A DNA stretch of 53,257 bases from a virus (Duplodnaviria > Caudoviricetes). The DNA lies in the IMG/VR virus record IMGVR_UViG_3300030376_008154, positions 1 through 53,257 of that record. One strand, written 5' to 3'. This document shows, one piece after another, positions 10,046 to 49,500 of this stretch. Position 1 is the first letter of the stretch. Each line of letters starts with the position of its first letter. Below the pieces are notes generated by a model. It saw nothing but the letters and a program-made list of their open reading frames with translations, made no database searches and was not told the origin of the DNA. A program made the translations under genes and the position numbers.

Positions 10046-10687
10046 ATGAATATAGCAACTATAGCTGGACATTTAGCCTTTGGATTAATAGCCTTTTCTT
10101 TTCTGGTCAAGGACATATTATGGTTACGGGTTGTATCTATATTAGCGAGTCTTTTCTCGGTATTTTATAATTATTTCATACCAATTGAACCCATGTGGTT
10201 GGCTATCAATTGGAATATCGTCTTTGTTCTTGTAAATCTCTATCACATAGCAGTTATCGTATATGAAAAACGACCTATTAAAATGGCACCAAAAGACAAA
10301 GAGTTATACGAAACTCTGTTTAAAGATTTAAGTCCTGTTGAATATCTAAAGATAACAAAGATAGCAGAATGGAAAAAATTTAAAGCTGGTGATACTTTAA
10401 TTAGAGAATCACATATGGTTACTGATTTAATTTTAATATACAATGGAACTGTTGATGTCAATGTAAAAGGTGAAAAAGTTGCTGAATTAAAAGATGGGCA
10501 GTTCGTAGGCGAGATGTCATTCCTTACAGAGAAATCAGCAACTGCTGATTGTGTGGTAAAGCATGATACTGAATGTATATTATGGAAACAGCCTGAGTTT
10601 AAGGATTTATTAAAAAGAAACCCATCTTTGTATTATACCATACAGGGTTTATTAAGTAATCAATTGATAAGCTACAGTAGTAAGTAA
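10046..10687 (+). CDS. Popeye-like membrane protein with C-terminal cyclic-nucleotide-binding domain
   Basis: Three TM helices (…KDILWLR…WNIVFVLVNLY) then a cNMP-binding fold (GDTLIRE, LIYNGTVDV, GQFVGEMSFLT, ATADC). Confidence 0.85.
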   Translation: MNIATIAGHLAFGLIAFSFLVKDILWLRVVSILASLFSVFYNYFIPIEPMWLAINWNIVFVLVNLYHIAVIVYEKRPIKMAPKDKELYETLFKDLSPVEYLKITKIAEWKKFKAGDTLIRESHMVTDLILIYNGTVDVNVKGEKVAELKDGQFVGEMSFLTEKSATADCVVKHDTECILWKQPEFKDLLKRNPSLYYTIQGLLSNQLISYSSK

Positions 10688-17129: not shown

Positions 17130-17548
17130 GGGGCTGAACTTGGTATCGATTATTATAATCAGTTTAACGAGTGCAGCAGAGATTGAGTCAATATCTCGCG
17201 ACAAAAGACTCACTACTCTTAATTGGCGAAGTATCGCTAGACGGGTTGAACATTGATTGGCATTTGGCCGAGTATGATTACTCACCAGCACCAATCGGTG
17301 ATTATCAACCATCTTACTCATACGCTGCGTAAGATACTGAGTTGTCTAACACTCGGTCATAAAATAAGTTAGACGAACTCTCTTTAGCTAGGATGAAGTT
17401 AGAGATTAAAGAAACTGCCAGTTGGTCACTCTGTGGAAAGTGATGGGTGTGTTGTAGGTGCAGTCTCCGAGGGTTAGAACCTAACTAAGCTGTGAATGAC
17501 TTAGTAAATAGATATAGTAAGACGGGGGTTCGAATCCCCCCAGCTCCA
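17130..17548 (+). ncRNA. ssrA: tmRNA
   Basis: GGGGCTG/CAGCTCCA acceptor with G3-U70; T-arm GGGGG-TTCGAAT-CCCCC; pseudoknot 1 (GAGAT/ATCTC, TGAGTC/GACTCA); internal tag frame 17225..17332 ending YSYAA-TAA. Confidence 0.95.
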
Positions 17549-17565
17549 CAAAATTAGGATAAAGT

Positions 17566-18038: not shown

Positions 18039-18548
18039 ATGAACAAAAAAACAGTAATATTTGATTTAGATGGTACTCTTGCTGATATCGATATCAGAAG
18101 GGATAAGTCTCTCAAACCTAATGGTAGGTTGGATTGGGATATTTTTGCTTCTCCTGATTCTATTATGAATTGGGATAAACCAAATGCACCAGTAATCAAA
18201 ATGGCTCAGATGTTTCATAACGATGGATTTAAAATTGTTATCTTTAGTGGTAGGAACGATAGAGGTTTTGTTGCTACTAAACATTGGTTAACGGTTAATA
18301 GTGTGCCACATGACCTTTTAGTATTAAGACCTGATAAGTTCAAAGCTAACTCATGGCCAATTGCTGAAGGAAACAAAGCAACACCTGATATGAGATTTAT
18401 GCCTGATGAAATTTTGAAGAAGGCTATGTTAGATACTTTTGTAGATATCAATGATGTTTTTTTGGTTGTAGATGATAGAGATAAGGTTGTGAAAATGTGG
18501 AGAGATTTAGGTTTAAATACTTTCCAAGTAGCACCAGGAGATTTCTAA
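18039..18548 (+). CDS. HAD-family phosphatase (polynucleotide kinase/3'-phosphatase C-domain type)
   Basis: FDLDGTL, FSGR, VDDR..VV.MWR..G...FQVAPGDF. Confidence 0.88.
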   Translation: MNKKTVIFDLDGTLADIDIRRDKSLKPNGRLDWDIFASPDSIMNWDKPNAPVIKMAQMFHNDGFKIVIFSGRNDRGFVATKHWLTVNSVPHDLLVLRPDKFKANSWPIAEGNKATPDMRFMPDEILKKAMLDTFVDINDVFLVVDDRDKVVKMWRDLGLNTFQVAPGDF

Positions 18549-18659: not shown

Positions 18660-18732
18660 GGGGCTGTAGCTCAGTTGGGAGAGCGCTTCACTTGCACTGA
18701 AGAGGTCGCAGGTTCGATTCCTGTCAGCTCCA
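18660..18732 (+). tRNA. tRNA-Ala(UGC)
   Basis: Cloverleaf with GGGGCTG/CAGCTCC acceptor (G3-U70), anticodon arm CTTCA-CTTGCAC-TGAAG and TTCGATT T-loop; CCA not encoded. Confidence 0.95.
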
Positions 18733-18739
18733 CTTAAAT

Positions 18740-18810
18740 GTGGTGGTAGTCAAATGGTTAGGCAACGGATTGCAAACCCGTGTATGTGAGTTCGATTCTC
18801 ACCCACCACT
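18740..18810 (+). tRNA. tRNA-Cys(GCA)
   Basis: GTGGTGG/CCACCAC acceptor, U73, anticodon loop TTGCAAA and T-arm GTGAG-TTCGATT-CTCAC. Confidence 0.9.
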
Positions 18811-18835
18811 CAAAAACTTTTAATGAGGTTATAAA

Positions 18836-19039
18836 ATGAAAATTAAAGTAGAAAAGAAACTATTAAACGGTGAAATAATAAAAACAGAAGAACTGTTTTT
18901 TAATATACCAAAGGCAATTTCTGATGAACTGAACTGGGAAGATGGTACACTAGTTGAATGGGAAGTTGTAGGTTTTATGGAAAATGATAAAGAGGCTAGA
19001 ATAGTTCTTAAAAATATAGATGATAAAATCTTAGATTAG
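18836..19039 (+). CDS. AbrB/MazE/SpoVT-like DNA-binding protein
   Basis: FFNIPKAISDELNWEDGTLVEW pattern; GAGG RBS. Confidence 0.7.
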   Translation: MKIKVEKKLLNGEIIKTEELFFNIPKAISDELNWEDGTLVEWEVVGFMENDKEARIVLKNIDDKILD

Positions 19040-19042
19040 GTA

Positions 19043-19083
19043 AAAATAAATTTGTATTTGAGAAAATATATAGATATATATTA
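19043..19083 (+). promoter_or_regulatory. Class-II promoter-like element, copy 1
   Basis: AAAATAAATTTGTATTTGAGA-N10-ATATATATTA, repeated at 41500. Confidence 0.65.
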
Positions 19084-19091
19084 TTGTACAT

Positions 19092-19163
19092 GCGGTGGAA
19101 GTCTTAAAGGTAAGACATTTCGATTCCATCGAAAAGGTGTAGGTTCGATTCCTACCCACCGCT
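19092..19163 (+). tRNA. tRNA-Gly(UCC), atypical
   Basis: GCGGTGG/CCACCGC acceptor with U73 (Gly identity), anticodon arm TTTCG-ATTCCAT-CGAAA and T-arm GTAGG-TTCGATT-CCTAC. Confidence 0.85.
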
Positions 19164-19213
19164 CAAAACTTTTGGCCAGTAAGGCTACTTAACAATTGAT
19201 AATTAACTAAAAT

Positions 19214-20371
19214 ATGTTTGATAAATTTTTTGATGAACCAAAATTCGACTTTGACGCTGAGCGTACAAAGTTCATATCTAACTTAGACTTACTAAAGTCT
19301 ATGTCTGTACAAGAACAAACCTTATATAAGAAGTGGCAAGAATTCAATAAGAATGAATATAATATGAGGAATAAAGTTACGAACTTTCCTAAATATTATA
19401 ACAGACTTTGGAAACCCACCGATATCACAGATAAGGAATTAACTATAAAAGAAATTGAATCTATAGAACCAGAGGTTGTATTTGTTCCATCTGATGATGC
19501 TAGTAATTGGACTATGTATCGTAAGTTAATTCACACTATGGATTGGAATGCTAATCCTGGTCGTAATCAAAAGTATTTTATAAGAGATAAGGTTACAGAT
19601 AGAATATTAGGCTTGGTATCATTAGGTTCTGATGTTACATCAATCAAAGTTCGTGATGACTATATTGGTTGGAGTAAGGATAATAAATTTGTCGACCATA
19701 AACTAAACAATACTGCTATCGCTTCTACAATAGTTTGTACTCAACCTATTGGTTTTAATTTCTTAGGTGGTAAACTAATTGCAGCATTAACAACATCATC
19801 TACCATTCGTGATAAATGGTATGAACAATATAATGATATTCTAATTGGTGTAACCACCACATCGCTTTATGGTGTACACTCACAGTATAATGGTATACCA
19901 CATTGGAAAACACTTGGTGAATCTGCTGGTAAGATTGCAATCAAACCAGATGATGATGTTTACTTTGTATGGGCCAATTGGTTAAAAGAAAATTATAGGG
20001 AAGAGTTTGATAAGGCACAAAGTCAAACAGGCCCTAAACAAAATACTATCAATCGTATCTTCAAACACTTAGGTATAAAAGGTAAGGATTATGAACATGG
20101 ATTTCATAGAGGTGTATTCTTTGCCAATATGTATGATAATGGTTTGGAATATCTGAGGGATGAGATTGAAGATAAAGATTTAAGAATGAAACCAAAATTT
20201 GAAAATGATATAGATTACATAATGAATTGGTGGAAACCAAAAGCCATCAGGCGTTATGTTAAACTATATGATAATGATAAACTTAAGCCTGAAGTGCTTT
20301 TCTATGGAGATATCGTAGGAAAGACTTGGGAAGAAACAAAGGAACAATATATAGGAGAAGTAGGTAGATGA
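19214..20371 (+). CDS. DUF4338-family protein (domain shared with Druantia DruA)
   Basis: NPGR, LG.VSLGSD, VRDDYIGW, QPIGFNFLGGKL.A, TTTSLYG..SQY and W..LGES.G motifs. Confidence 0.75.
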   Translation: MFDKFFDEPKFDFDAERTKFISNLDLLKSMSVQEQTLYKKWQEFNKNEYNMRNKVTNFPKYYNRLWKPTDITDKELTIKEIESIEPEVVFVPSDDASNWTMYRKLIHTMDWNANPGRNQKYFIRDKVTDRILGLVSLGSDVTSIKVRDDYIGWSKDNKFVDHKLNNTAIASTIVCTQPIGFNFLGGKLIAALTTSSTIRDKWYEQYNDILIGVTTTSLYGVHSQYNGIPHWKTLGESAGKIAIKPDDDVYFVWANWLKENYREEFDKAQSQTGPKQNTINRIFKHLGIKGKDYEHGFHRGVFFANMYDNGLEYLRDEIEDKDLRMKPKFENDIDYIMNWWKPKAIRRYVKLYDNDKLKPEVLFYGDIVGKTWEETKEQYIGEVGR

Positions 20372-21765
20372 TTACTTATTTAAAACAAAAAAAGAAGTAC
20401 GATATTGAAATAGAAGAATATAATGAAAAGAAAATCGGAATTGATTTGAGTTTTCAGTCCAAAGCAAGATGGACAATGTCAGAGAAAGAAGAACTATTCA
20501 TATCTGCTATGCATGGTGATATTCTGTCTTATCATGTAATTGTCAATCTTTTATCTGCAAGAACTAATGCAGATAAAACAAGCTCAAAAAAGTTATATGA
20601 TAGACATATGAAAAAAGGTTTAGACTATTTAAACGTTGACAGTAATAATAGAACTATTACATATGATGACATCATTAATGATTTAGTCAAGTTACGACCA
20701 GGTAAATATCTTGATATTAATGAACAAGCAGTAGAGATAGAAAATCCTACAGTACTATCTGAACTACCAAAGTCATTACAAAAAGTTTTTTACAGATGCA
20801 AAATTAGTGTCATAGAGTATACTAAAATAGAAAGAAGTCAATGTAAAAGATTATTCAGAAGTCTAAACAAAGGTATGAATCTCAATAATCAAGAATTGAG
20901 AAATGCAGAGGCAACAGATATTGCAAAGTCGGTAAGAGATTATGCAAGTGATAATGAAGATGTATTTGGCTATTGGATAACGGAAGGAAAAATAAACCGT
21001 AGGAAAAACGATGAGATAGTTGCTCAATGTGTTGCTCTTCGATATGCGATGTCCGAAAAGAAAAAGTATAGTGTGACAAATCCAACATTAGATTCAATGT
21101 ATGATGAAGATGATAATGATGGTAGAGTAATTGCAGGATTTTGGTCGGATACAAAACCTCTGTTAGATAAAGCTATATCACTTATAAATTCACAAAAAGA
21201 TATGATGGAAGATGTTCCAAATAATACTGTTTCGTGGTTTATAGATTTGTTTATGTTACTTTGTCACTTTAATGATGAAAATATTGCAATAAACGACAAT
21301 GGTAAAGTTTTTGAATGGTTTTGGGATAATAATCAATTAAGAACTGGTAGTAGAAAAGTTTTACAGGAAAGACCCACAAAAAATGGTGGAGTATCAAAAG
21401 AAACTTTTGCTACACTTAGTGGTTCTCAGAAAGATTGGGTTTTACCAATCAGACATGATAGTATATTATCAGATTTTTACAATGACTCAAAGTTGTTAGA
21501 AGATGGTATTGTGACACAGGTACCAAGTGACGATTACTACAGTTGGCAGGATAAATTAGAATTATGGGAACTTCAAAATGGTATTGCACATGATCCAATT
21601 ACAGAAAAACCAACTGGTGAAAAGATTCCTCTAAGAGAACTTTATAATTCTAAAAAATGGCAAGCAGATGCAAAAACACCAAGAAGATTTGGTGGTAGAC
21701 ACACCATAGATAATGGACAAATTACATCAGCACACGATAATCAATCAGCAGGAGCCAAAAAATAA
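20368..21765 (+). CDS. DUF262 (ParB-like, GmrSD-type) protein with degenerate C-terminal HNH-like domain
   Basis: FQS..RW, VDSNNR and LF.SLN.G..LN.QE.RNA motifs; C-terminal ADAKTP...GG.HT..N.Q.....N. Confidence 0.7.
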   Translation: MITYLKQKKKYDIEIEEYNEKKIGIDLSFQSKARWTMSEKEELFISAMHGDILSYHVIVNLLSARTNADKTSSKKLYDRHMKKGLDYLNVDSNNRTITYDDIINDLVKLRPGKYLDINEQAVEIENPTVLSELPKSLQKVFYRCKISVIEYTKIERSQCKRLFRSLNKGMNLNNQELRNAEATDIAKSVRDYASDNEDVFGYWITEGKINRRKNDEIVAQCVALRYAMSEKKKYSVTNPTLDSMYDEDDNDGRVIAGFWSDTKPLLDKAISLINSQKDMMEDVPNNTVSWFIDLFMLLCHFNDENIAINDNGKVFEWFWDNNQLRTGSRKVLQERPTKNGGVSKETFATLSGSQKDWVLPIRHDSILSDFYNDSKLLEDGIVTQVPSDDYYSWQDKLELWELQNGIAHDPITEKPTGEKIPLRELYNSKKWQADAKTPRRFGGRHTIDNGQITSAHDNQSAGAKK

Positions 21766-21766
21766 G

Positions 21767-23107
21767 ATGTCAATATATCAATTTACAGATTCCAAAGATA
21801 GTAGTAAAGAATACAAATACAAAGTACTTGTATATCCAAACATTACCTTTCAAAAAGATTTGGAGAAAGATTCTTATGTTGTTGTCTTAGGCAACATAAT
21901 AAAAGAGATAAGTAAAGTACGTGATGATATTCATTGGACTATATTTTCACCAAAACATATTGATAGTTTACAGTTTGAAAATACACACCAATTGATATTA
22001 CCATTGCCATCATATCCAAATGCGATGAGATTACATTTCGACCAAAAAAGAATAATCAAAGGTATTGATTTTAGACATAATGATTTTGATATTGTTTATT
22101 CTCATTTACCAGAACATACTCTACAATTAAAAAATGTTTTCCTAAATGAAACAAACATCGAACCGGCCTTTGTAGGTTATACACATTGGACAGAATTTCC
22201 TGAAATTACGAATTACAAAGAAACTGTAATGGATATTAATTTTCTTGGTTTACTGGCTATGGAAAAGTGTGGTATCAATACGCAAGGACAAAAGAACTTA
22301 GTATTAAAAAATGCCAAAACACATTTCAATGATGATGTTGTTAATAGATTAGATGAAATATTAGAACCGCAGTATCTTGGTTGGGAAATTCCTAAGTATG
22401 AGAAACAAACTACAGACAAAAAAATTATTGTATTTAATCACAGGCCACATGCTTATAAAAACTATCCTTGGTTTTTGAAACAGATGGATAGACTATGGAG
22501 AATTAGGAAGGATTTTGAAGTATGGGTGCCATTGGCAGAAAGTAAAGATAGAGAATATATAAACATTGACAAATATGATAGAGTTGGATATTTTTCTAAA
22601 CTATCATCGTGTCGTGTTGGTGTATGTGCAAAACAAAAATATAGTGGTTGGGCCGTATCTGCTACAGATGGTATGTCAGTTGGTGTTCCATATGTATTTT
22701 CAGATGACGATTACTATCATGAACTTGCAGGTGATGATGGTGTTTATTACTATGACGTTGATGATGCATTAATAGATACAATAGAACCATTTTTAGATGA
22801 TGACTTATTAAGAGAAAGATATTCTGAAAAAGCTCTTAATAGATTTGAGAAAGGTAAATGGGGAACTGCAATACATCAATTCAACAATATGTTTGATGGA
22901 GCAATAGACAATCTACCAATGTTAAAGAATGATACCGATACATATAAAAAAGTATTGGATTTCATACATAAGAAAAAATCAGTTACTAAAGCAGACATAC
23001 TCAATATGTTAAATTGGGGAGTTAGGATATCCTTTAGTGGTTATAGAAATAGATTAAGAAACGAACCTACCATAAGGTTCACAAAAGATAGATATGAGGT
23101 TAGATAA
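21767..23107 (+). CDS. GT-B glycosyltransferase with C-terminal winged-helix-like extension (track start 21713)
   Basis: DIVYSHLPE, IVFNHR...YK, W..SATDGMSVGVP nucleotide-sugar-binding region; basic helical tail. Confidence 0.8.
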   Translation: MSIYQFTDSKDSSKEYKYKVLVYPNITFQKDLEKDSYVVVLGNIIKEISKVRDDIHWTIFSPKHIDSLQFENTHQLILPLPSYPNAMRLHFDQKRIIKGIDFRHNDFDIVYSHLPEHTLQLKNVFLNETNIEPAFVGYTHWTEFPEITNYKETVMDINFLGLLAMEKCGINTQGQKNLVLKNAKTHFNDDVVNRLDEILEPQYLGWEIPKYEKQTTDKKIIVFNHRPHAYKNYPWFLKQMDRLWRIRKDFEVWVPLAESKDREYINIDKYDRVGYFSKLSSCRVGVCAKQKYSGWAVSATDGMSVGVPYVFSDDDYYHELAGDDGVYYYDVDDALIDTIEPFLDDDLLRERYSEKALNRFEKGKWGTAIHQFNNMFDGAIDNLPMLKNDTDTYKKVLDFIHKKKSVTKADILNMLNWGVRISFSGYRNRLRNEPTIRFTKDRYEVR

Positions 23108-23887
23108 ATGAAACAATTATCAGAAAAACAAATACTAGACAATTGGAATAAGTTAATGCAACTTATAGAGGATACCTTTTCAGATGAAAGAAAAGAGAAA
23201 CTCTTAGAGATGTATAAATACTTTGAAGATAGAATGTCGGTTGCACCAGCTAGTGGTAAAGCAGCATACCACAATGCTATGGTAGGTGGTTATGTGGAGC
23301 ATGTATTGCATGTAACCGATTGTGCAATTCAAATTAAAAAGCTGTGGGAGTCTAATGGAGCTATGATTAACTTCACCGATGAAGAACTAATCTTCGCTGC
23401 TATGCATCATGATTTGGGTAAGGTAGGTGATTTGAATCAAGACTATTATATCCCACAAGACTCTGAATGGCATCGTAAGAATAGAGGTGAGATATTTAAA
23501 CATAATCCAAATCTCCAATACATGACAGTTACCGATAGAGCGATTTTTATCTTAAATCATTTCGGTATCCAAATGTCCGAGTGGGAATACATCGGATTAA
23601 AACTAACTGATGGTTTATATGAGGATGGAAACAAGTCGTATTATATATCTTATAATCCAGATTGGTCATTAAAATCTAACATTGCATACATCTTACATCA
23701 AGCAGATATGATGGCAACACATATTGAGTATGATGAATGGCAAAATTTAGATGAAGAGTCAAATACTAAACTACAGACTAATTTTAAGAAGGCAGTTGAT
23801 AACCGTAAGACAGAAGAAGTTCAATCACCTAAGTTAACTGCAAAATCACAAGATCTTTTTGACGAACTATTTGGAGATAAAGAATGA
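23108..23887 (+). CDS. HD-domain phosphohydrolase
   Basis: APAS...YH....GG..EH, HHDLGK and LHQAD motifs. Confidence 0.88.
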   Translation: MKQLSEKQILDNWNKLMQLIEDTFSDERKEKLLEMYKYFEDRMSVAPASGKAAYHNAMVGGYVEHVLHVTDCAIQIKKLWESNGAMINFTDEELIFAAMHHDLGKVGDLNQDYYIPQDSEWHRKNRGEIFKHNPNLQYMTVTDRAIFILNHFGIQMSEWEYIGLKLTDGLYEDGNKSYYISYNPDWSLKSNIAYILHQADMMATHIEYDEWQNLDEESNTKLQTNFKKAVDNRKTEEVQSPKLTAKSQDLFDELFGDKE

Positions 23888-24150
23888 TTTTAGAAATAAG
23901 TCTTGTATTATTGGCAATTTTGTGTGTAGCTTCTTGGTATGGATTGTGGAATACTATGAAAAAGATGGAAATTATGGAAGATTGGATTTCAAATTTTATG
24001 AATAGTGCAATTGACGTAAATAATAAAGTTAAAGAAATAGATTACAAAGGATATTTTGCCGAAGATGACGAAACAGGTGTAATATTCAATCAATTAAAAG
24101 AAACAATAAATCAACTAGACAAACTTCGAGGAGAAGAGATAAATGGGTAG
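23884..24150 (+). CDS. Small membrane-anchored protein
   Basis: N-terminal TM; FAEDDETG.IF motif; ATGA coupling with the upstream gene. Confidence 0.65.
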   Translation: MILEISLVLLAILCVASWYGLWNTMKKMEIMEDWISNFMNSAIDVNNKVKEIDYKGYFAEDDETGVIFNQLKETINQLDKLRGEEING

Positions 24151-31208: not shown

Positions 31209-31517
31209 ATGCCATATACACAAGAAGAGCTTCAAAAAAATGAATACTATCAGAATCTAATCAATGAAGATGAACAGAGATACGAACAGCAAAGGGCACT
31301 ATATCAAACCGCATTTCTTGATAGCGGTGGTGAGAATGATGGGAGTCTTTTAGTAAGGGATAAGGATAACACAATACTACTATTTGAGAATCCATATACA
31401 GGTGAGTTATATGAAGATGAAACCACATCTTATGTAAAAACAGTTGAAGTAGAACAATTCAAAATAAATGAAGATATATTAGATGAAGTTATTAACAGAA
31501 ACATAACGGAATTATAA
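31209..31517 (+). CDS. Acidic hypothetical protein
   Basis: Coupled to both neighbours. Confidence 0.7.
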   Translation: MPYTQEELQKNEYYQNLINEDEQRYEQQRALYQTAFLDSGGENDGSLLVRDKDNTILLFENPYTGELYEDETTSYVKTVEVEQFKINEDILDEVINRNITEL

Positions 31518-34500
31518 TGGCAAGTAACTTAAAACAAAGTGATAAGGATTTATTATCTGCTGGTAATAAAATAAGAATCGGTAACAAGCCATATGAAAAT
31601 GGTATATTCGGTAGTAGAGAAAGTCGTGATTTTATATTTTTCCAGCTTACAGATATAAATGGAAATGTAATAGAATATAGAAACATTCCTTATAGCCAAA
31701 TAAACTTGCAGGAAAATGGAAATTTATTACTACAGCCCCCACAACAATTCAAAGACTCTGAAATTACCTCTGGTACATATAATGTTACATATAGATTTTT
31801 CAGAAGATTAGCTGGTGATGATACGACAATTCTAATTCGAACAGTTCCTAATGCAGAAGATGGTAAATTTATGATATGGGAGGATTATGAAAATATAGAA
31901 ATTACAGATGAAGGGTTGGTTTATGAAAAACTAAATGTTAACGGTGATTTTTTTGAAAGAGGTCAAGAGTTACAGGTAAAGAATTTAAAATATCAAATTG
32001 ACGAGATATCACCTTCAAGAACTGAAGTTAGGTTAAGAGCTCAAAATTTTGATGGATTAAACTATAAGGAAGATTTTTTCAGATTAGGCGAACAATTAAG
32101 AAAGTCTATTTCTATGCCAGGTTCAGTAATAGAATTTGTGGCAGATGATGGTGATTTAAATGATACGAATACCATACAAATTAACCCGATGATTGATGAC
32201 TTCGTATTCACACCACGAATGATTGATGGAACCGTACAGATAAATGATGTGTTTTTAGTTGATGAAATTTTAATAACACCTAAAAGCGATGACATCGCAA
32301 AAAATGGCGGTGGAGAGCTTACAGTCATAAGTGATTTAGGCGATGTAAAGAAATTAGGCGATGAATTTCAATGGGATACAAATCTTCACAGTAAAGCAAT
32401 ACAAGTTCAAGATTGGAGTAACGGTTTTTTAGGTTACCTTAATAAACCAACTTCCATATGGGGTGCTACAATAGGCTTAGGATACTTTGCACATTGGGTG
32501 CAAGGTGAAGGTAAGGGCGGTGGAATATGTATGAAATTTCCAGATATTAACCAAACCTTCGAGCAAACCATAGAAGATTGGCCAGCAGGAAATCCGCATC
32601 GACCATTATTAATACAACAACAATACTTTGATAGCTTGGAGGCATTCAATGTAAGTCACGGTGATAATATATTAGTAACCTTTGATGTAAAAAGTACAGT
32701 TATAAATAAACCATTAAGGGTAACTGCGAGATATCCTAATGAACCATTAACCGAACCTAAGCCAACCAATCCACCTAATGGTTTCTATGATCCAGATGCA
32801 CCAGATATTGATGAAGAAGTACCATCTATACCTGATGGTTTTATCGGACCAGGAGACCTTTCGGGTGTGGAACCTGAACCGCCTAGTAATCTCAATGGTA
32901 TAGTTGAATATTTTGATTTGGATGTTCAACAAGCAAATGCAATATCCATAGGTATTAACGGACCTTTACATATAGGTATGACAACAGCCGATACAATTTT
33001 CGGAGGAGTTGGTTTTTGGAAAGTTGAAGCTGTTGAAGGCTCAGGTAGTAGCTTATCAGTTTCGTGGATTGTCAATTCAGATTATTCAGGTTTTAATTTA
33101 TTTAATGGTTTAGTAAGTCCGGAAGGACAGTGGGTTTGGGATGGTGTAGCTATTTCTTGGTCTCCTAATACCGGTGGTGGGTGGTCATTACCTGAAGCCA
33201 CACCTGGTACGGTTAATTCGAGCGAATTTCCTAATGCAGTTAATAAAAGTATTTACCAACAAGAAAATGTGGGAGTTCCTGTTTTTGAAAGAACCACCCA
33301 AATTGGACAAAATGCTGGTTGGGTTACCGGTTTTGTAGGTGGAGGCGGTTCAAGTGCACGAGCAATATTAGTAAAGGATGATTTACTTTGGGAGGTAACT
33401 CCAAGTGCGGGTACTGATAGTGGGGTAAGGCATTACACATTTACTGAATTTTTTCTTACATCAACATATTCTTCTGGTATGACATCATATGGTTCGATTA
33501 AGCTTAATATCAATGAAGAAGGTGATGGTGTAGTAGATGTTAACGGTAAAACTTTGGATTATCTCATATTTGCCAACGGTGGTTTCATTCAGTCTATAAC
33601 TAGGGATAGAAAGTTAACTCAACCAGAAGATACACCATCGGGCTATGTAATTTGTTATAATGATGGTTTAGGTACGAATAAATCTAATAAGATTGCAAAC
33701 TTATATAGAGATACGGATTTTACATATAAAATAGAAATAAAAGCTATAGAAAATCTTTCTGGTGGAGAAGTATTGAACAACTCCATGCAGAATCTCGGTA
33801 ATCGTTGTGAAGTAACACTTAGAACCAGGCCTGATAAATCCTATCGATTTGATTTTTTCTTCTTAGTTGGAAGTAAGGTGTTTGTACGAAAAACTTCTAC
33901 ATCGAAACATTTTTTAAATCCAGCTAACTCTGTACAATCTGCAGAATTTAAATTTTTTGAATCACCTGACAACATTTCTGAAAATGACGAATTTAACCTT
34001 TGGCTGACAGAAGGTGAACCTCAGGTTTGTTTTGAAATGTATGGTATACCAGTCGGTAATGAGGATGATGATGAGCAACTTCATTACTGGTCAAAATTTC
34101 ATCATATAAAGTTTAACGAACAGCAGCTTGTAAAGAAAACTGGAACAGATGAAATTTCACCAGGTCTTTTAGTAGCTAATAGAATAGAAACAAATTTTAA
34201 TATCAATGATATATTTTTAGGTGCGGGTATTGTACAACGTACAGGTCCTGATGGTGGACAACCATTGGAGTTTGGAGTTCTGAACCCTTCTGCGATAAAC
34301 TTTAATCCGAATGCAGTTTACTCAGATAGCACAGTTCAACCAGAATTTGATTACAGTGCAGATCCTCGAAGAATTGGTACATTATCACCTGAAGAATTTT
34401 GGAGGTGGAGCGGTACTGTAGATTCCGGTTGGGAATATCAAGGTGTAATACCTATTGCATTCTCATCTACAAGACCAGCAGAACCGCCTATAAGAACTAC

Positions 34501-37500
34501 TAAATCTAATGAATGGGAAAGTTTTACGGTTTCAATTCCAGTAAGAGAAGATTGGATATTAAATGCTACCAGTGCGTGGTCTTTGAATTTTGAAGGACAT
34601 GATTTTACTGATACCAATACATTCGGTATAAGTTGGATTGATAATGTAGAGGTTAAATTTGAATTTACACAGCAATCAACCACAAAACAGATACTTAAAC
34701 CTTACGTCGCACAAATAAAAACTGTAAGTGATAATGGCTTGATAATTACCACAAACAAAACCTTTCAGGAAGCAGCAATAGAACTTAGTGATGATGATAA
34801 TCCTGTAGAAGCAGTTTATGATGGTACAAATAATGAGGGAGTGTATCTATCCTATCAAACTGAATATCTAATTTTTAATCCGCGAGAATTAAGAACTTAT
34901 ATAAAGTTAGAAAATAGTTTTTTCCTCACAACCAACTTCAGACAAGATAGACAATCAATTATAGAATATCCACATGGATTGGTATTCAAATTATATCAAC
35001 CATTACCTGAGAGTGTAAAGAGATTTGATGAAATAACTGTTGTAAAAGAGATGGTAGAACCTGCTGTAGAAAGAATGAGGGTTATTGATTTTATTCCAGA
35101 AGAAACTGGTGACAGAGTATTAAAGAGTCCTGATTTGGGTAATTTGGATAGCGGTATAGTTAGAAGAACCACTCAATTTAAATCAGAATCAGAAATATTA
35201 ACTGCTGATACGAATATATCAGAAAAATTGAAAAGTCAATTTATATCACAAAGCTTTGACAGTGCAGATATAAATGTCGATTATACTCAATACAAAAATT
35301 TTACAAATTTTGGTTCTGTAGAGAAAAGGTTAGAGAATTTTAAATATAAATTAGAACTCATTGAATCATATAATACTCAAAGCGGTTCTCTTGAAAGTAT
35401 TAGTGGCTCATTAAAAGATATGAGAAAATGGGAAGGATTAATCAAAGAGGTTAAGAATAATTTTGATGGTTTTGAAAGTTTTATGTATTTCGAAAGCTCT
35501 TCTTATATCTCTAGTTCGTTGGGGGTATTTCACGATAATGCTTGGCCTAAATCAAGTGGTACTGGTACGGTAAGAAGTCCTTATGTTTTAGCACACACCA
35601 CATCTTCACAAGCAAAAAATTGGTATAATAACTCATTAAAATCCGCATCACTCTATGATGAAGAAAATTTAAATAAATTAAGCTCCTTATTACCCGAGCA
35701 TGTTAGAGTTGATACTAACAATGACCTTTACTTAAAGTTTACGGATATGTTAGGACACCACTTTGATGAAATTTGGTTATATATAAAAGCTATGGGGGAT
35801 GTGTTTGATAGAAGAGAAAGTCTAGATCAAGGTATCTCAAAAGATTTATTATATGAGGTTGGAAAGTCATTGGGTTGGACTCTTAGTGATGGAACTGATT
35901 TAGTATCTTTACCAAGATATGCAACGGGTGCAGAAGTAACAGGTTCCAGCTACTCTGATTACTCAGCTATAGCAGAAAAAGATATGTCTCGTGAAATATG
36001 GAGTCGTATTATAAATAATATGCCATTCTTTTTAAAGCATAAAGGAACTGTTAAAGCATTAAAGGGTTTGATAAATGTATATGGAATACCATCAACTATT
36101 CTCAGAGTAAAGGAGTATGGTGGTCCTAATGTACCAAACAGCGATACCCCACAATTTGAAATAAGTCGTAAGTTTACTAAAGCGTTAGATTTTAGAGGTG
36201 GACAATTTGTAAAAACACCTTGGACTGGAAGTCTCACTGGTACGGAAAGAAAGCCCGATACTATAGAATTTAGATTTAAGGCAACAACAGGATCAAATCA
36301 AATATTAGTAGAAAAGAAATCTGCAAATCCATCTTCGAGCTTTTACATCAGATTAAAGGATAATAACTCTGTTGATAATAAAGGACATGTAAGTTTTCAA
36401 TTAAGTGGTTCTGATGGATTGAAAGAAATTTCATCATCCATGTTACCTATTTATGATGGTGATTTCTATTCTGTAATGTTAAGAAGAACTTCAGGTTCTG
36501 ATGCATCTAATATATCACAATCATTTGAATTATCAGTTGGTAAATACGATGCTAGTAGAAGTAAGATACAATATTTTTCAGCAGTAACAATGTCAACTGA
36601 TATAGCTGCTTCGTCATCTTTTAATAAAACTTATGCAGATGATGGAAATATATTTATTGGTGGTAATACTGATTTATCAAATGTGGGTTTAAGGCTTAGC
36701 GGCTCAGTTATGGAATATAGACATTGGACTGAAACTCTTGGTGTAAAACATTTTAAAAATCATATATCTAACCCAAAAGCTTATGAGGGTAATCACCAAA
36801 CCTCTTCTTATCAAAATTTAGTTTTAAGATATTCTTTTAACGATGATAAAAATTTAGCAACTGATACGGTAGGTATTAGAGATGTAAGTTCCACAGCAAC
36901 ACCAACTACATCTGGTTCTCATAATGGTTTTACAGGTAATTTTTATTCCAATGTAGTTGACGAAACAAAAACTCACATACCAAGTATCGGTGCGTTAAGA
37001 AGAGTAACAAATAAAGTTCGTATAGAAAGTAATTCCATCAAAGAAGGTGAGGTATTACAGTATAAAAAGAGAGCGACAAAAAGTGCTTATGACAGTGCAC
37101 CCAACGATTCTAACAAAGTAGGAATATTCTTTGCACCAACCGATGTGATTAATAATGATATAATTAATTCTGTTGGAGATTTGAACTTTGATAATTTCTT
37201 AGGTGATCCAAGAGATACAAAAGAATTAAGCTACAGAGGACTAAAACTTACATCAGATTCATATTGGAAAAAATATAATTCTCCAAACAGCTTTTGGGAT
37301 TATATTAGATTGTTGAAGTTTTATGACCAATCTTTATTTCCTCAACTTAAAAAAATGATTCCTGCTAGGGCAAAATCAAACGTTGGTGTACTTGTTGAAC
37401 CAAATATATTTGAAAGACCTAAAGTAGTTATGGGTAAGAATCCAACATTTGAGGATTTATCATTTACATCATCTATAAATCTAACTGATAGTGTAATATC

Positions 37501-38281
37501 GGTAACTTCTTCATATAATGCAGGAGTTACTGTTTCTTCATTTAATTCATATATTGGTGAAATTCCAATAAATAGTTATGAAACTGGTTCAATGAGTTTT
37601 AATTTTACAGGAAGTTACGATACCTTTGAAGGAACTTTAAGTGATTTTAAAAACAATAACTTTGATTTAAGTATTTGGCAACAATTTGGTAGTGGTTCTT
37701 ATGTATCTGCTTCTATAAAATCAGGTGATGACAAGCCCAAAGAGGTATTTCAACCTATAATAAGTGGTTCACGTGTTTATGGTAGAAATCAAAAAATAAA
37801 GAAAATTTACAGTTCTATATCAAATCAATTAGCAGGTATTGCTAATTCATCATCCTTTGAAAATATTGATATAGATAATCTAGCAGATGAATCATTAGCA
37901 AAATTCAATTCATATTATGCGGGTGTGAAAAATACGGAAGATTCAACTGTAGATGGCGGTTCACCAATTGAAATTGTAATAACTTCTCCAACTAAACTAG
38001 TTACTCAGAAAGGTGGTGATTCTACTTTAAAAACTGGTGATGGATTGGTACCTGATTTTAAACAAGTAGGTTCTAAAGAAAAGGGAGGAGAAAAACTTCA
38101 ATCTAAAGCAACCGGAGAGGATAGTACACAACCTATACAAATGACGCCACTTGAAGCAAAGAATTACTTTGAAAAGGGTATAGTTCCAGACAATCTAAAG
38201 AATGATAAATCTAATAAAGGTATTAAAGGTTCGAAAGATAAAGGTCAGGGAAAAGGCAATGGAAAGAGTTATAATAAATAA
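31517..38281 (+). CDS. Very large baseplate/tail structural protein (2254 aa) with carbohydrate-binding-like and LamG-like regions
   Basis: EISPSRTEVRL; LKHKGTVKALKGLINVYG tail-I-like segment; TIEFRFK...IFIGG...LSGSVMEYRHW LamG-like segment. Confidence 0.75.
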   Translation: MASNLKQSDKDLLSAGNKIRIGNKPYENGIFGSRESRDFIFFQLTDINGNVIEYRNIPYSQINLQENGNLLLQPPQQFKDSEITSGTYNVTYRFFRRLAGDDTTILIRTVPNAEDGKFMIWEDYENIEITDEGLVYEKLNVNGDFFERGQELQVKNLKYQIDEISPSRTEVRLRAQNFDGLNYKEDFFRLGEQLRKSISMPGSVIEFVADDGDLNDTNTIQINPMIDDFVFTPRMIDGTVQINDVFLVDEILITPKSDDIAKNGGGELTVISDLGDVKKLGDEFQWDTNLHSKAIQVQDWSNGFLGYLNKPTSIWGATIGLGYFAHWVQGEGKGGGICMKFPDINQTFEQTIEDWPAGNPHRPLLIQQQYFDSLEAFNVSHGDNILVTFDVKSTVINKPLRVTARYPNEPLTEPKPTNPPNGFYDPDAPDIDEEVPSIPDGFIGPGDLSGVEPEPPSNLNGIVEYFDLDVQQANAISIGINGPLHIGMTTADTIFGGVGFWKVEAVEGSGSSLSVSWIVNSDYSGFNLFNGLVSPEGQWVWDGVAISWSPNTGGGWSLPEATPGTVNSSEFPNAVNKSIYQQENVGVPVFERTTQIGQNAGWVTGFVGGGGSSARAILVKDDLLWEVTPSAGTDSGVRHYTFTEFFLTSTYSSGMTSYGSIKLNINEEGDGVVDVNGKTLDYLIFANGGFIQSITRDRKLTQPEDTPSGYVICYNDGLGTNKSNKIANLYRDTDFTYKIEIKAIENLSGGEVLNNSMQNLGNRCEVTLRTRPDKSYRFDFFFLVGSKVFVRKTSTSKHFLNPANSVQSAEFKFFESPDNISENDEFNLWLTEGEPQVCFEMYGIPVGNEDDDEQLHYWSKFHHIKFNEQQLVKKTGTDEISPGLLVANRIETNFNINDIFLGAGIVQRTGPDGGQPLEFGVLNPSAINFNPNAVYSDSTVQPEFDYSADPRRIGTLSPEEFWRWSGTVDSGWEYQGVIPIAFSSTRPAEPPIRTTKSNEWESFTVSIPVREDWILNATSAWSLNFEGHDFTDTNTFGISWIDNVEVKFEFTQQSTTKQILKPYVAQIKTVSDNGLIITTNKTFQEAAIELSDDDNPVEAVYDGTNNEGVYLSYQTEYLIFNPRELRTYIKLENSFFLTTNFRQDRQSIIEYPHGLVFKLYQPLPESVKRFDEITVVKEMVEPAVERMRVIDFIPEETGDRVLKSPDLGNLDSGIVRRTTQFKSESEILTADTNISEKLKSQFISQSFDSADINVDYTQYKNFTNFGSVEKRLENFKYKLELIESYNTQSGSLESISGSLKDMRKWEGLIKEVKNNFDGFESFMYFESSSYISSSLGVFHDNAWPKSSGTGTVRSPYVLAHTTSSQAKNWYNNSLKSASLYDEENLNKLSSLLPEHVRVDTNNDLYLKFTDMLGHHFDEIWLYIKAMGDVFDRRESLDQGISKDLLYEVGKSLGWTLSDGTDLVSLPRYATGAEVTGSSYSDYSAIAEKDMSREIWSRIINNMPFFLKHKGTVKALKGLINVYGIPSTILRVKEYGGPNVPNSDTPQFEISRKFTKALDFRGGQFVKTPWTGSLTGTERKPDTIEFRFKATTGSNQILVEKKSANPSSSFYIRLKDNNSVDNKGHVSFQLSGSDGLKEISSSMLPIYDGDFYSVMLRRTSGSDASNISQSFELSVGKYDASRSKIQYFSAVTMSTDIAASSSFNKTYADDGNIFIGGNTDLSNVGLRLSGSVMEYRHWTETLGVKHFKNHISNPKAYEGNHQTSSYQNLVLRYSFNDDKNLATDTVGIRDVSSTATPTTSGSHNGFTGNFYSNVVDETKTHIPSIGALRRVTNKVRIESNSIKEGEVLQYKKRATKSAYDSAPNDSNKVGIFFAPTDVINNDIINSVGDLNFDNFLGDPRDTKELSYRGLKLTSDSYWKKYNSPNSFWDYIRLLKFYDQSLFPQLKKMIPARAKSNVGVLVEPNIFERPKVVMGKNPTFEDLSFTSSINLTDSVISVTSSYNAGVTVSSFNSYIGEIPINSYETGSMSFNFTGSYDTFEGTLSDFKNNNFDLSIWQQFGSGSYVSASIKSGDDKPKEVFQPIISGSRVYGRNQKIKKIYSSISNQLAGIANSSSFENIDIDNLADESLAKFNSYYAGVKNTEDSTVDGGSPIEIVITSPTKLVTQKGGDSTLKTGDGLVPDFKQVGSKEKGGEKLQSKATGEDSTQPIQMTPLEAKNYFEKGIVPDNLKNDKSNKGIKGSKDKGQGKGNGKSYNK

Positions 38282-46519: not shown

Positions 46520-49500
46520 ATGAGCATAGTCAAAAAATTTAATCCACTAAAAAATCTAGACCAAATCGATATATTGGTTGACGATTTTAATCAGTCCAGG
46601 CATTTTGTCATAACTGATTTACCCGAAAGTTTGCCGCAAGGTAGAAGTTCATTCTTAATAGAAACAGGACCATTTTTAAAAGATGGTGTAGAATTACAAA
46701 TAGATTTTGTAGATTCGGAAGGTAATTCTATTTACTATGAACCTATTGAAGATTATTTGGAAGGAACGTCACGAAGAATATCTGTAGAAATATATAGCGA
46801 TACAGGACCTGGTGTTGCTAATTTGATTATCGTTGGTGAGTTAGATTCGATTCCTTTATCAGAAGGTGCATTTTCTGATGTAGAAGCAGTACCAGAGGAT
46901 TGGAAAAATATTTATAACGTTAGGTTAACTAAAGAAATAATAATTAATCCAACAGAAATCAACACCGAGCCGATAAGATTTTATACTCAACCCAAAATAT
47001 CCGTATCTGAAAAGAGATTTGGGTCTTTAGTTCGTACTGAAACGAGTGCGTCGATAAGTTCATCTTTTAATTCAATAGAAGGATTACCAGATCAAAATTT
47101 TGAATTTACCGTATTTGAAACAGAAGATCCAAAGCAGGGTTCTTTATCCGAAGCAAGTGATAAAAAAACTAAACCTAAAAATAAAACGGATTCTATTTTT
47201 AAATTAGGTAATCAATTTAAAAATAAAAAGGGTAAAAGAAAAAGTAGTATATTCAAAAGAATTGGGCATATAGCGAGATCTCGTTCACCTATTGAATATC
47301 CCTATTCATTTAGAATTACTAATTCTGATGAATTTACTACAAAAGATATTGGTGCTAGAGTAGTATTAAAAACAATAAACTCTTCTGCATATGATAGGGA
47401 ACAGTTTGATACTTCAAATATTCCGTTTCCACCAACTTTAAGTAATTATACAGGTTCTATAGCAGAACTTCGTAATAACAAAATTGCATTATTAGAAAAA
47501 CCTTTTACTAATAAGAATACAAATAATGAAGATGTTATAATACCATTCTTTGGTACAGCTGAAATAATAAAACAAGCAGAACCCACTTCCTCATACAGTA
47601 CAGCTAATATAATTTCATATGCAGATGTTGCATTAAGTGATATGAGAACATTTTCAGGTGATATATTTAAAGCTAAAATTATGGTTAGAAGTGAGGGTTC
47701 ATTTGACGATTTTAAAACTTTAGCAGAAATACCTGTAGAATCATCCGAACTTATGATTGATCCATTATCAGTAGGATTATCAGAACATACTGGTTATTAT
47801 GAGAATCAAGCAAACATCAACACTTATTGGACTACAACCGGTGGAACATCAACATTTTCAAATGCTCCATTATTAGATGGTGTATATGTTTCGGGTAGTG
47901 TAGCGACTTTTGAAAATCAAATCAAGTATAGTCTAAAGAATGCTTATAAATTTTCACTAACAAAAAATATAGATTTTACATTATCCTTTAATGCATATAC
48001 AGAAAGGGGAAATGATACACGTTCGTTATTAGCAGTTTATATTTCTGGCTCATCCTTTTCTCATAATAGTGATATTTTTGTAGACAGTGCGACAAATAAA
48101 GTTTTGGTTGATGATAATAGCTACGGTTATAGATTGGGTATAATAGAGGTTGATGACCAAAGTGAAAAAGATCTAGGTTTAGTAGTACAAAATTTTACAC
48201 CTCAAAATACAGGAGACGCAGTTGTTCAATTTAGAGTTATAGAAGGTAGTTGGTATTTTTCTGATATATCGGTAAAACCATCTGAAGATACGGGATTTTC
48301 ACCATCAACATTTACATTTCAAAAGGAAATGCCTTTGGAGTTTCAACATAAGAGGCCGGATACCTTTGAATTTTTAGTGGAGTTTTATGATGCAAACGAT
48401 AATATTGCAGACAGTCTTGCATTTAATACAGGCTCTTTATTTACTGGAGGAAATGTTGTTATAAGCGGTAACGATAATATACAAAGTGGAGATATGTTTT
48501 TAGGTGGAGACAGTACCGGTAGTGGTATTCATTTTGGTGGTATCGATTCTGTATTACCTGAAACTGGTCAGGATGGGGCAGAAGGTTCTGGTTTTATTCG
48601 TTCCATAGGATATCAAGGATTTGTATCAGCATCAAATTCATCTCTTGGTGGAAAATTTGGATTTATGATTTATAGTGGTTCTGTCTTACCAAGTAGTGGT
48701 GATAATTATGCTGGTGTAGGATTGGAATTGGTAGGTGCGAGTGGTTCTTTAAAATTCAGAACTAACCCATCTATATTCGAAGTTGTCGCGGATGCATTTT
48801 TTGTAGGTTCAACATCAACACAATTCATAAGTGGTTCTACTGGTGCGATAGAAATTAGTTCTTCTAATTTTCATCTTACTCCTCAAGGAAATGTTACAAT
48901 GAGCGGTATCATTACTGCTGAAGGTGGTAATATAGGAGACTTCAAAATACTTGGCGGACAGATAAGTGGTTCTAATATGACATTCAATGCACCTCGTTCA
49001 CAATTATTCAAAACCGACCAAGGGCCAGGTAGTGATACAGTCGCACAGTTTGATGAGAAAAGAGATGAATATTATATAGATTTTACACCTAGCGGAAGTG
49101 GTGATGCTGATGGTACAAACTATTATATTAAAATGGGCCCAAGCTTTATGGTTGATAAAGATGGTATCCTTATAGCTAGTGGAGCAGAGTTCGTAGGTAC
49201 AATAACAGCGTCTGCGGGTTTGATTGGTGGATTCACAACAGACTCCCATTCATTCAGTAGTAATAACATTTTCATAAGTGGTTCACCATTACAAGGAAGT
49301 GTTGATGATTCTAAACATATGTTTATCAGCACCTCAAACTTTAATGTCAAACAAAGTGGTGATATAACAGGTTCTAAAGTATTATTCACAGGTGGAAAGT
49401 TAGGTGGGTTTAATATTAACAATACATCAATAAGAGATGTGAACAACACAGTAGAATTGAGTAGTGCTTTACCTGGTTTGAAAATCAAAGATAATGGTGG

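Follow-up and report, generated by a model that had tools for sequence, protein, structure and literature searches.

A conserved DruA-glycosyltransferase pair flanks an exchangeable gene slot in marine T4-like phages, a candidate hotspot of DNA hypermodification

Results

Four tightly packed genes follow a tRNA-Gly gene

We analysed a linear DNA fragment of 53,257 nucleotides (nt) that represents the entire IMG/VR record IMGVR_UViG_3300030376_008154 (CheckV completeness 28%) and is referred to here as the window. Our focus was on four consecutive genes encoding a DruA-like protein with a DUF4338 domain, a protein that we call ORF2 (open reading frame 2), a glycosyltransferase (GT) and an HD-superfamily phosphohydrolase (HD) (Table 1). 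An earlier annotation of the window (hereafter the original prediction) had proposed that these genes form one module with which the phage marks its own DNA and reads or protects that mark, assembled from domains usually associated with anti-phage defence. The tight packing that it described agrees with the ORF coordinates: the DruA-like gene and ORF2 overlap by 4 nt, 1 nt separates ORF2 from GT, GT and HD abut with a gap of 0 nt, and HD overlaps the next ORF (23884-24150) by 4 nt. On the other hand, the class-II promoter placed ahead of the genes found no support, as a sigma-70-type scan returned 35 sites versus 31.2±5.2 in shuffled sequences and thus no enrichment, only 49 nt lie between the tRNA-Gly gene and the DruA ATG, and the phage is T4-like (see below).

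Table 1. Features at and around the DruA-GT locus of the window (aa, amino acids).
Feature	Coordinates	Strand	Basis and remarks
tRNA-Gly(TCC)	19092..19164	+	ARAGORN; 49 nt upstream of the DruA-like ATG; possible accessory
DruA-like (DUF4338), 385 aa	19214..20371	+	Pfam PF14236; backbone gene
ORF2, 465 aa	20368..21765	+	divergent ParB/DUF262 N-terminus and C-terminal HNH; slot cargo, not backbone
GT, 446 aa	21767..23107	+	GT-B model; backbone gene
HD phosphohydrolase, 259 aa	23108..23887	+	PHROG and weak Pfam HD; conserved neighbour of GT
Two downstream ORFs, 88 aa and 242 aa	23884..24871	+	tblastn synteny; travel with HD, also in immuto; no Pfam family

DruA and GT form a conserved frame around a variable slot

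To describe the genomic surroundings of the four genes we used relatives of GT, which occur in 435 stretches in IMG/VR; 112 loci from two scans were examined, of which 73 were distinct after identical GT 3' ends had been dropped. A DruA-like gene lies upstream of GT in all 32 loci with at least 2.5 kb of upstream sequence and in 38 of the 46 with at least 1.5 kb. Downstream, HD follows GT in 64 of the 68 loci with at least 800 nt of sequence (with an insert of 215-885 nt between the two genes in 8 of the 64), and four divergent loci have no HD after GT. Of the 73 loci, only three have an ORF2-like gene: L009, L016 and, as a distant case, L042. These counts show that the order DruA, GT, HD is a conserved backbone to which ORF2 does not belong. 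All four genes occur together in just two other loci (L009 and L016) out of 42 that contain both DruA and GT, so that the claim of a four-gene module fails: ORF2 can be swapped, and HD is syntenic with its downstream genes in Flavobacterium phage vB_FspM_immuto and is missing where the pair lies beside the DNA polymerase.

Two side observations concern the same loci. In L016 (3542-4610) the DruA-like gene is split near residue 250 into two ORFs, the second of which is 72% identical to window residues 256-385, reflecting either a frameshift or an assembly error. The interval between GT and HD constitutes a second, smaller variable site in L026, L027, L039, L075, L076, L077, L082 and L123, with ORFs of 70-217 aa, four of which were scanned and gave no Pfam match.

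The distance between DruA and GT ranges from -3 to 2914 nt over the 42 loci, and the slot between the two genes is empty (at most 69 nt) in 7 and occupied in 35. Slot ORFs of 90 aa or more number 46; clustered together with ORF2 of the window, they form 22 clusters (Table 2). When eight of the unknown cargo proteins were compared with PADLOC and PHROGs, seven matched nothing, the exception being a 426-aa protein of L020 (phrog_314, 3.4e-7). In both L012 and L021 the slot protein contains GmrSD_N alongside an HNH domain that is intact. How quickly the slot changes is illustrated by G001, a close relative of the window phage (125.6 kb, completeness 68%), whose DruA is 98% identical to that of the window and whose slot holds an unrelated 420-aa ORF; cargo turnover is therefore faster than the divergence of the flanks.

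Table 2. Cargo of the slot between DruA and GT.
Cargo	Loci	Match
Unknown family, 415-526 aa	8	one member matches a homing-endonuclease PHROG, 3.4e-7
Mom, PF25680	6	~1e-40
Unknown family, 389-447 aa	6	no Pfam, PADLOC or PHROG match
GmrSD_N with or without HNH	5	Pfam
ORF2 clade	2 and the window	
TET-associated GT (TAGT)	1 (L020)	7.7e-11
Endonuclease_7 (EndoVII)	1	Pfam
Dam-type MethyltransfD12	1	3.3e-26
HNH_2	1	Pfam
Glycos_transf_1 GT	1	2.8e-7
GT_PLOD GT	1	2.9e-29
AAA_33 kinase	1	Pfam
Remaining cargo: two unknown families; further ORFs	2 per family; 1 per ORF	further ORFs without Pfam match or unscanned

The pair is also found outside the HD neighbourhood. On the 95.7-kb contig of L102, a DruA-like gene (40% identity), a kinase gene, GT (56% identity) and an 81-aa ORF are followed by the gene for a family-B DNA polymerase (PolB), and there is no HD; in BLASTP searches the ORFs flanking the pair on this contig were neither Mom-like nor GT-like. 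Because the pair recurs beside PolB without HD, we conclude that the pairing of DruA and GT is independent of HD. Genes of the Mom type appear around the same functions: in L098 a Mom gene (3.1e-50) directly follows GT, and the clamp loader of G001, located beside PolB, is flanked by two Mom genes and a DUF1599 gene of the 'nucleotide modification associated' kind. In the cyanomyophages S-SCSM2R and S-SSM7, the clamp-loader genes gp44 and gp62 enclose a DruA-like gene. In T4-like phages, genes of the Mom type and of the DruA type are thus found at equivalent positions near the replisome genes.

The region near PolB and the clamp loader of G001 may represent a large glyco-modification island. 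Over L048 5689-19419 and L049 2843-8592, both part of the G001 record, the two Mom proteins and the DUF1599 protein are accompanied by a sulfotransferase, two GT-B proteins and a SLOG protein, and there are also ATP-grasp, Polysacc_synt_2, epimerase and GT2 genes.

The DruA-like protein is predicted to adopt a Mom-like fold

The assignment of the first gene to DUF4338, the DruA domain, was confirmed by Pfam (PF14236, E 2.5e-24, a score of 86.4 bits where the cut-off is 27, and a match over profile positions 9-297 of 297) and by the PADLOC DruA profile (1.4e-22). Structure prediction started from an alignment of 53 sequences, drawn from an exhaustive search of representatives that returned 1,062 proteins at E<=1e-3 and 161 at E<=1e-30. 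The resulting AlphaFold2 model (pLDDT, or predicted local distance difference test, 95.4; predicted template modelling score 0.90) shows a Gcn5-related N-acetyltransferase (GNAT) fold flanked by helical N- and C-terminal parts; a helical insert, residues 247-293, separates its last two strands. Among 48,161 PDB representatives compared with VIA-align, the top-ranking structure was Mom of phage Mu (8bv8_B; Z 10.2, root-mean-square deviation 3.8 Å), aligned over 164 of 202 residues to model residues 80-317, while the next GNATs scored Z 8.6 or lower. Every Foldseek match in the PDB was likewise a GNAT, all with E>=2.8e-3. Against viral models, the strong matches were uncharacterised proteins of uncultured phages and giant viruses, and a Mom protein of a Salmonella phage came at rank 12 (E 4.3e-3). 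By sequence, the DruA-like protein gave no Pfam match to the Mom family PF25680 at E<=0.01; in a non-significant hhalign overlay, the invariant TTTSLYG strand of DruA falls on the SYAD strand of Mom.

DUF4338 has already been called a GNAT in print (PMC10853773). Mom is described as a GNAT that glycylates N6 of adenine in double-stranded DNA using Gly-tRNA(Gly), with catalytic residues R111 and S124 and an essential helix-turn-helix-like insertion (Silva et al. 2026, PMC13219725); the text of that article contains no occurrence of DruA, Druantia or DUF4338. In the DruA-like protein, the invariant R147 and S217/T215-T216 are candidate counterparts of R111 and S124. A preprint on Phold notes structural DruA look-alikes in six Synechococcus phages and, in the part concerned, assigns them no function (10.1101/2025.08.05.668817). 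In the main texts of the articles listed by full-text searches for DUF4338 and DruA we found no functional study of DruA and no account of the present locus, although metagenomic Mom neighbourhoods may be tabulated in the supplement of Silva et al.; a YprA-helicase preprint and the CoCoNuT paper do not contain the whole word 'DruA'.

The requirement of Mom for Gly-tRNA(Gly) makes the tRNA gene in front of the DruA-like gene of interest. The same tRNA-Gly(TCC) is located directly 5' of DruA in G001 and in 4 of the 25 IMG/VR loci that extend 400 nt or more upstream; the other 21 have no tRNA gene there, and all tRNAs within 400 nt upstream of DruA are Gly(TCC). By analogy with Mom, this placement is weak evidence and at best a lead toward the co-substrate of the DruA-like protein, limited to sub-lineages. 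The loci in which tRNA-Gly(TCC) directly precedes the DruA-like gene are the window, L026, L031, L077, L123 and L047, which fall into two sub-lineages.

Homologs of the DruA-like protein are abundant, with 3,056 at E<=1e-5 in a protein collection of 5.8 billion clusters. In a survey of 24 length-extended homologs, picked by hand from 150 listed representatives, we found an N-terminal ParB_N domain in eight, GIY-YIG/NUMOD3 in three, and UDG, DUF3102 and LAGLIDADG in one each, while the remaining 10 had no further domain above noise. Judged by their family assignments, the domains fused to DruA are all DNA-handling. The cultured-phage collection held 31 records with a DruA-like gene, comprising 25 from Synechococcus (phages S-SM2, S-SSM7 and S-PRM1 among them), three from Pelagibacter, two marine single-cell viruses and one cyanophage. 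The pelagimyophages Mosig and HTVC008M carry the DruA-like gene without the other three genes.

GT has a GT-B fold and an additional C-terminal module

The GT matches Pfam Glycos_transf_1 (PF00534) at 3.1e-5 with 24.0 bits, just under the cut-off of 26.4, and many of its close homologs are annotated with PF00534. Although the Pfam score is sub-threshold, the predicted GT-B fold is borne out by the AlphaFold2 model (pLDDT 85.6), in which residues ~16-385 form a GT4-like GT-B core. Structural alignment gave Z 24.8 to BshA (340 residues), Z 24.7 to PimB', Z 17.8 to the GT of phage HY126 and Z 17.0 to the alpha-GT of phage T4, and Foldseek returned 7qsg at 1e-15 and 9ir0, the HY126 GT, at 6e-12. 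Phage HY126 is reported to carry arabinosylated 5-hydroxycytosine (PMC13326640).

GT4-like enzymes act on many acceptors, and the modelled fold therefore does not discriminate between possible acceptors of GT. A match to the TET-associated GT family PF20691 (TAGT) was not obtained for the window GT at E<=0.01, and it shows no detectable paralogy to the two other GT-B proteins of G001. A search of the window for Tet_JBP was also negative, but uninformative, since the control matched in no genome. Beyond the span covered by the structural search, GT carries a C-terminal module of ~55 aa consisting of three helices and a hairpin. In the model this module is probably winged-helix-like and DNA-binding, a reading drawn from its topology alone, since the last 62 residues returned best scores of only 0.84, within noise, in the language-model atlas. 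The protein collection contained 1,203 GT homologs at E<=1e-5; none of the cultured-phage records matched.

ORF2 is a conserved DUF262-type protein with a degenerate HNH site

The original prediction described ORF2 as a DUF262-HNH protein of the GmrSD type. ORF2 itself has no Pfam match even at E<=10, including none to DUF1524. The DUF262 part of the assignment has indirect support, pointing to a divergent DUF262, from PADLOC NsnA (4e-7), from phrog_2598 (8.5e-9) and from alignments: slot proteins that reach Pfam GmrSD_N and HNH also match phrog_2598, and ORF2 aligns with them. NsnA is described as the ParB-DUF262 DNA sensor of Menshen (PMC12065111). The HNH part was recovered with the ORF2 family profile, which matches HNH domains in the PDB (Cas9 and other nucleases) at 2e-7.

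The active site itself departs from the family. In 9 of 9 aligned members of the ORF2 clade the general-base His of the HNH motif is replaced by Ala, whereas the outgroup proteins P0408, P0409, P0410, L012 and L021 keep the His; the Asp and both Asn (N449 and N458) are retained in ORF2. ORF2 hence departs from the beta-beta-alpha-Me motif of HNH endonucleases (PF01844), which comprises an Asp-His general base, a structural Asn and a metal-binding Asn or His. Replacement of this His, as in Cas9 H840A, abolishes HNH cleavage. The clade shares the segment W-Q-A-D-A...P-R...G-G-x-H-T-x-D/E-N-G-Q, and the DUF262 signature reads DSNNR in ORF2 versus DGNNR or DGQQR in relatives. Taken together, the motifs indicate that the HNH site is non-canonical and probably inactive, and because the general-base His is missing, GmrSD-like cutting by ORF2 appears doubtful; a DNA sensor or binder is more likely.

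ORF2 belongs to a small family. Only 20 homologs were found at E<=1e-3 in the 5.8 billion clusters, of which 17 belong to the ORF2 clade (49-100% identity), and the cultured-phage collection contributed a single record with 23% identity. When IMG/VR was scanned with the ORF2 protein alone there was no match, yet L009 and L016 encode relatives, which marks a limit of the pattern method and not absence. The ratio of nonsynonymous to synonymous substitution rates (dN/dS, Nei-Gojobori) of ORF2 is ~0.18 between the window and L009 and 0.35-0.43 against L016, compared with 0.08-0.14 for DruA-like, GT and HD; with dS near saturation, these ratios are rough. As estimated from these comparisons, ORF2 is under purifying selection and the gene is maintained.

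HD travels with the downstream block

The call of an HD hydrolase stood in part. A PHROG match ('metal-dependent phosphohydrolase', 4.2e-9) and a visible HHDLGK motif favour it; the Pfam HD match (PF01966) stays below cut-off, with 0.015 for the window protein and 0.003-0.04 across all four family members that were tested, each time over the same region. HD is 45% identical to the phosphohydrolase of immuto, a phage without DruA and GT in which the downstream genes are syntenic with those of the window, and seven records of the cultured-phage collection contain HD. HD probably belongs with this downstream block. It travels with these genes in immuto and is missing where the DruA-GT pair sits by PolB, which argues against a core function; from this distribution HD would be at most accessory, for example by acting on nucleotide pools.

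The window derives from a marine T4-like myovirus

All large ORFs of the window are on the + strand, and the GC content is ~32%. The T4-type functions encoded here include those of the baseplate (wedge and gp25-like proteins), a DNA primase, a nuclease resembling gp46/SbcC, a CobS/MoxR-like ATPase, hsp20 and peptide deformylase, along with three tRNAs and a tmRNA. Based on the T4-type genes and on synteny with immuto from the HD gene onward, the window phage is a marine T4-like myovirus and not T7-like. With immuto as the closest cultured relative and given the GC content, its host is probably a member of the Bacteroidota. No phage record matched the 4.7-kb locus in blastn searches.

Several features elsewhere in the window deserve mention. 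The tmRNA gene (17130-17549, tag peptide GDYQPSYSYAA) lies directly upstream of a tRNA-Ala/Cys/Gly cluster (18660-19164). Three successive ORFs of 141, 146 and 132 aa at 146-1546 form a pilin-like set with a prepilin-type N-terminal methylation motif (PF07963, 1e-8 to 3e-7). A single ORF at 10046-10687 combines a cyclic-nucleotide-binding domain (1.9e-14) with a POPDC-like domain (4.9e-14), which is unusual for a phage. The ORF at 18039-18548 encodes a HAD phosphatase like that of polynucleotide kinase-phosphatases (PF25109, 3.9e-25), which stands alone and has no kinase domain. Two giant ORFs, at 31517-38281 (2254 aa) and 46520-53257 (>2246 aa, cut off by the window end), have no PHROG family and no helicase or MZB domain.

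Discussion

A candidate hotspot for DNA hypermodification and anti-restriction

Considering the conserved frame, the rapid exchange of its cargo and the nature of the enzymes involved, we interpret the locus as a DNA-hypermodification and anti-restriction hotspot of a marine T4-like lineage related to immuto, a reading to which we give a probability of roughly 0.55. The proposal of a phage module that marks its own DNA and reads or protects the mark is strongly supported by context, as Mom, Dam, TAGT, other GTs and GmrSD_N/HNH proteins share one slot beside a GNAT with a Mom-like fold; what does not stand is its form, because there is no fixed four-gene system.

We infer that DNA is the substrate of both backbone enzymes. 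The DruA-like GNAT would put an acyl or aminoacyl group on a base in double-stranded phage DNA, in a manner similar to Mom, and GT would attach a sugar to DNA, either onto the DruA adduct or onto another base. For GT, it is the genomic company of Mom, Dam, TAGT, PolB and the DruA-like protein that argues for DNA as acceptor. The slot between the two genes would serve as an exchange site for marking enzymes (Mom, Dam, TAGT and other GTs) and for DNA readers or cutters (DUF262/GmrSD_N-HNH, HNH, EndoVII and homing-endonuclease-like proteins). ORF2 may bind or sense DNA without canonical cutting, and HD would be a syntenic neighbour with an accessory role at most. A more specific order of steps, in which aminoacyl-tRNA-dependent acylation of a base in double-stranded DNA is followed by glycosylation of the adduct and tRNA-Gly(TCC) provides the donor, would yield a two-step 'aminoacyl plus sugar' mark; we regard this version as unlikely.

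Several points weigh against assigning DNA modification to this locus. The reading is built on gene order, folds and context, and conserved gene order in phages need not imply shared function. The 73 loci are not phylogenetically independent, and in roughly half of the cargo clusters no domain could be recognised. The DruA-Mom link is a structural one, between a model and a solved protein: hhalign gave E 0.18 and 0.22 with shallow and then deeper profiles and hence no sequence link, the DruA profile found no Mom chain (8bv8) among PDB sequences at E<=10, and Foldseek returned nothing from the PDB at E<=1e-3, with Mom only at rank 42 (E 2.2e-2). For GT, the T4 alpha-GT is only rank 37 among the structural matches, the best of which act on small molecules, lipids and polysaccharides. 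The sugar-nucleotide synthesis genes, further GTs and sulfotransferase of G001 would also fit glycosylation of proteins or glycans, and a ThyA-type hydroxymethylase was found neither in the window nor in G001 (28% and 68% complete).

Alternative explanations

One alternative is that the genes are functionally unrelated neighbours in a plastic region. GT would then glycosylate a non-DNA acceptor (a virion protein, a glycan of the host envelope or some small molecule), HD would be part of the late or baseplate block downstream, the DruA-like protein would act on a substrate such as protein or RNA, and the tight packing would reflect no more than genome economy. The leading structural matches of GT (BshA, PimB', MshA, PimA and sucrose-phosphate synthase) would be expected under this view, as would the Polysacc_synt_2, epimerase, GT2, sulfotransferase, cytidylyltransferase and two other GT-B genes of G001, the synteny of HD and its downstream genes in immuto without DruA and GT, and the solitary DruA-like gene of Mosig and HTVC008M; moreover, GNATs mainly acylate proteins and small molecules. 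It accounts poorly for a DruA-GT pair that is kept in other surroundings beside PolB, for a slot repeatedly occupied by the bona fide DNA-modifying enzymes Mom, Dam and TAGT, for the fusion of DruA domains to ParB_N, UDG and homing nucleases, and for the extra helix-helix-helix-hairpin module at the C-terminus of GT, and we consider it somewhat unlikely. The nucleases in the slot raise a different question, namely whether it is a landing pad for selfish free-standing endonucleases comparable to seg and mob of T-even phages, with ORF2 as a domesticated or decaying HNH protein of the homing type and the modification genes as passengers. HNH, HNH_2, Endonuclease_7 and the homing-endonuclease-like protein (phrog_314, 3.4e-7) all occur there, homologs elsewhere join a DruA domain to GIY-YIG/NUMOD3 or LAGLIDADG modules, cargo differs despite 98% identical DruA proteins, and the loss of the general base in ORF2 would fit decay. 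That ORF2 is under purifying selection over 49-100% identity speaks against decay, however, its DUF262/ParB-type N-terminal half is a sensor atypical for DNA binding by homing nucleases, and Mom, which is no nuclease, is one of the two second-commonest cargo clusters (6 loci); this explanation thus appears improbable.

If the DUF262-HNH cargo, ORF2 included, were instead a phage-borne type IV restriction enzyme, it could act on modified DNA of competitors or of the host and provide superinfection exclusion. GmrSD-type enzymes are described as cutting sugar-modified DNA (PMC4619093, PMC4437046), and the L012 and L021 proteins with their intact HNH would be suited to such a task. The window clade is not, given its uniform His-to-Ala replacement (9 of 9 aligned members), DSNNR in place of DGQQR and no detectable DUF1524, and we judge the restriction-enzyme explanation very improbable. 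The family assignment of DruA by Pfam and PADLOC also brings to mind a Druantia-like anti-phage defence carried by a phage. As the original prediction had correctly stated, the other Druantia genes are missing from the window, where we found no MZB/DUF1998, the domain of the large DruE helicase, and no Helicase_C (28% complete), and G001 has no MZB (68% complete). No other PADLOC Druantia protein is present among the four genes and 31 marine phage records have the DruA-like gene on its own, which makes a defence system of this kind extremely improbable.

Implications and comparison with known systems

A hotspot of DNA hypermodification and anti-restriction would have several consequences. The hypermodification of phage DNA determines which restriction and CRISPR defences are effective, and it is a source of enzymes for biotechnology. 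DruA is one of several parts of a widespread defence system that still lack an explanation, and is here an abundant phage gene. The Mom-like fold, the obligate GT partner in one lineage and the slot with Mom, Dam, TAGT and GmrSD-like cargo therefore lead us to predict that DruA-type enzymes mark DNA. Should the less likely two-step version also hold, the so far unexplained DruA of type I Druantia would be an enzyme that marks DNA, a mark that has gone unrecognised would be present on the DNA of abundant marine T4-like phages (pelagiphages, cyanophages and flavobacterial phages), and the 'aminoacyl plus sugar' hypermodification would represent an undescribed type. ORF2, as a conserved DUF262 protein with a dead HNH site, is a candidate non-cutting reader or shield of modified DNA.

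Among characterised proteins, Mom of phage Mu (PF25680; PDB 8BV8) is the closest counterpart of the DruA-like protein: it shares the GNAT fold as the best solved match, it is phage-borne, it is located in or near replication genes in relatives, and true Mom genes occupy the adjacent slot in six related loci. It differs in having no detectable sequence similarity and in its size of ~200-250 aa, as opposed to 385 aa for the DruA-like protein with its extra helical N- and C-terminal parts. With DruA of type I Druantia the protein shares membership in PF14236 and the PADLOC DruA match, but no DruB-E partners were found here, the gene is phage-encoded and it is paired with a glycosyltransferase. 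ORF2 resembles the DUF262 nucleases of the GmrSD, BrxU and SspE type and NsnA in its ParB/DUF262-type N-terminus, its GmrSD_N-positive relatives and its C-terminal His-Me/HNH-type domain, and departs from GmrSD-type nucleases in lacking Pfam GmrSD_N, in having DSNNR rather than DGQQR, HNH rather than DUF1524 and Ala at the general-base position, and in being phage cargo. The window GT has the GT-B fold in common with the DNA glycosyltransferases of phages (T4 alpha-GT, 1Y6F; HY126 GT, 9IR0; TAGT, PF20691), and L020 has a genuine TAGT in its slot; unlike these enzymes, it is nearer to GT4 enzymes acting on small molecules and glycolipids (Z 24-25), has no Pfam TAGT match and carries an extra C-terminal module.

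At the level of the locus, the arrangement recalls hotspots known from other phages, such as the defence and anti-defence sites of P2/P4-like elements and the seg/mob sites of T-even phages. Like those, it consists of conserved flanks around rapidly exchanged cargo that includes nucleases; it differs from them in that the flanks themselves are modification-like and that the recognisable cargo consists mostly of DNA-modifying enzymes and nucleases of the modification type.

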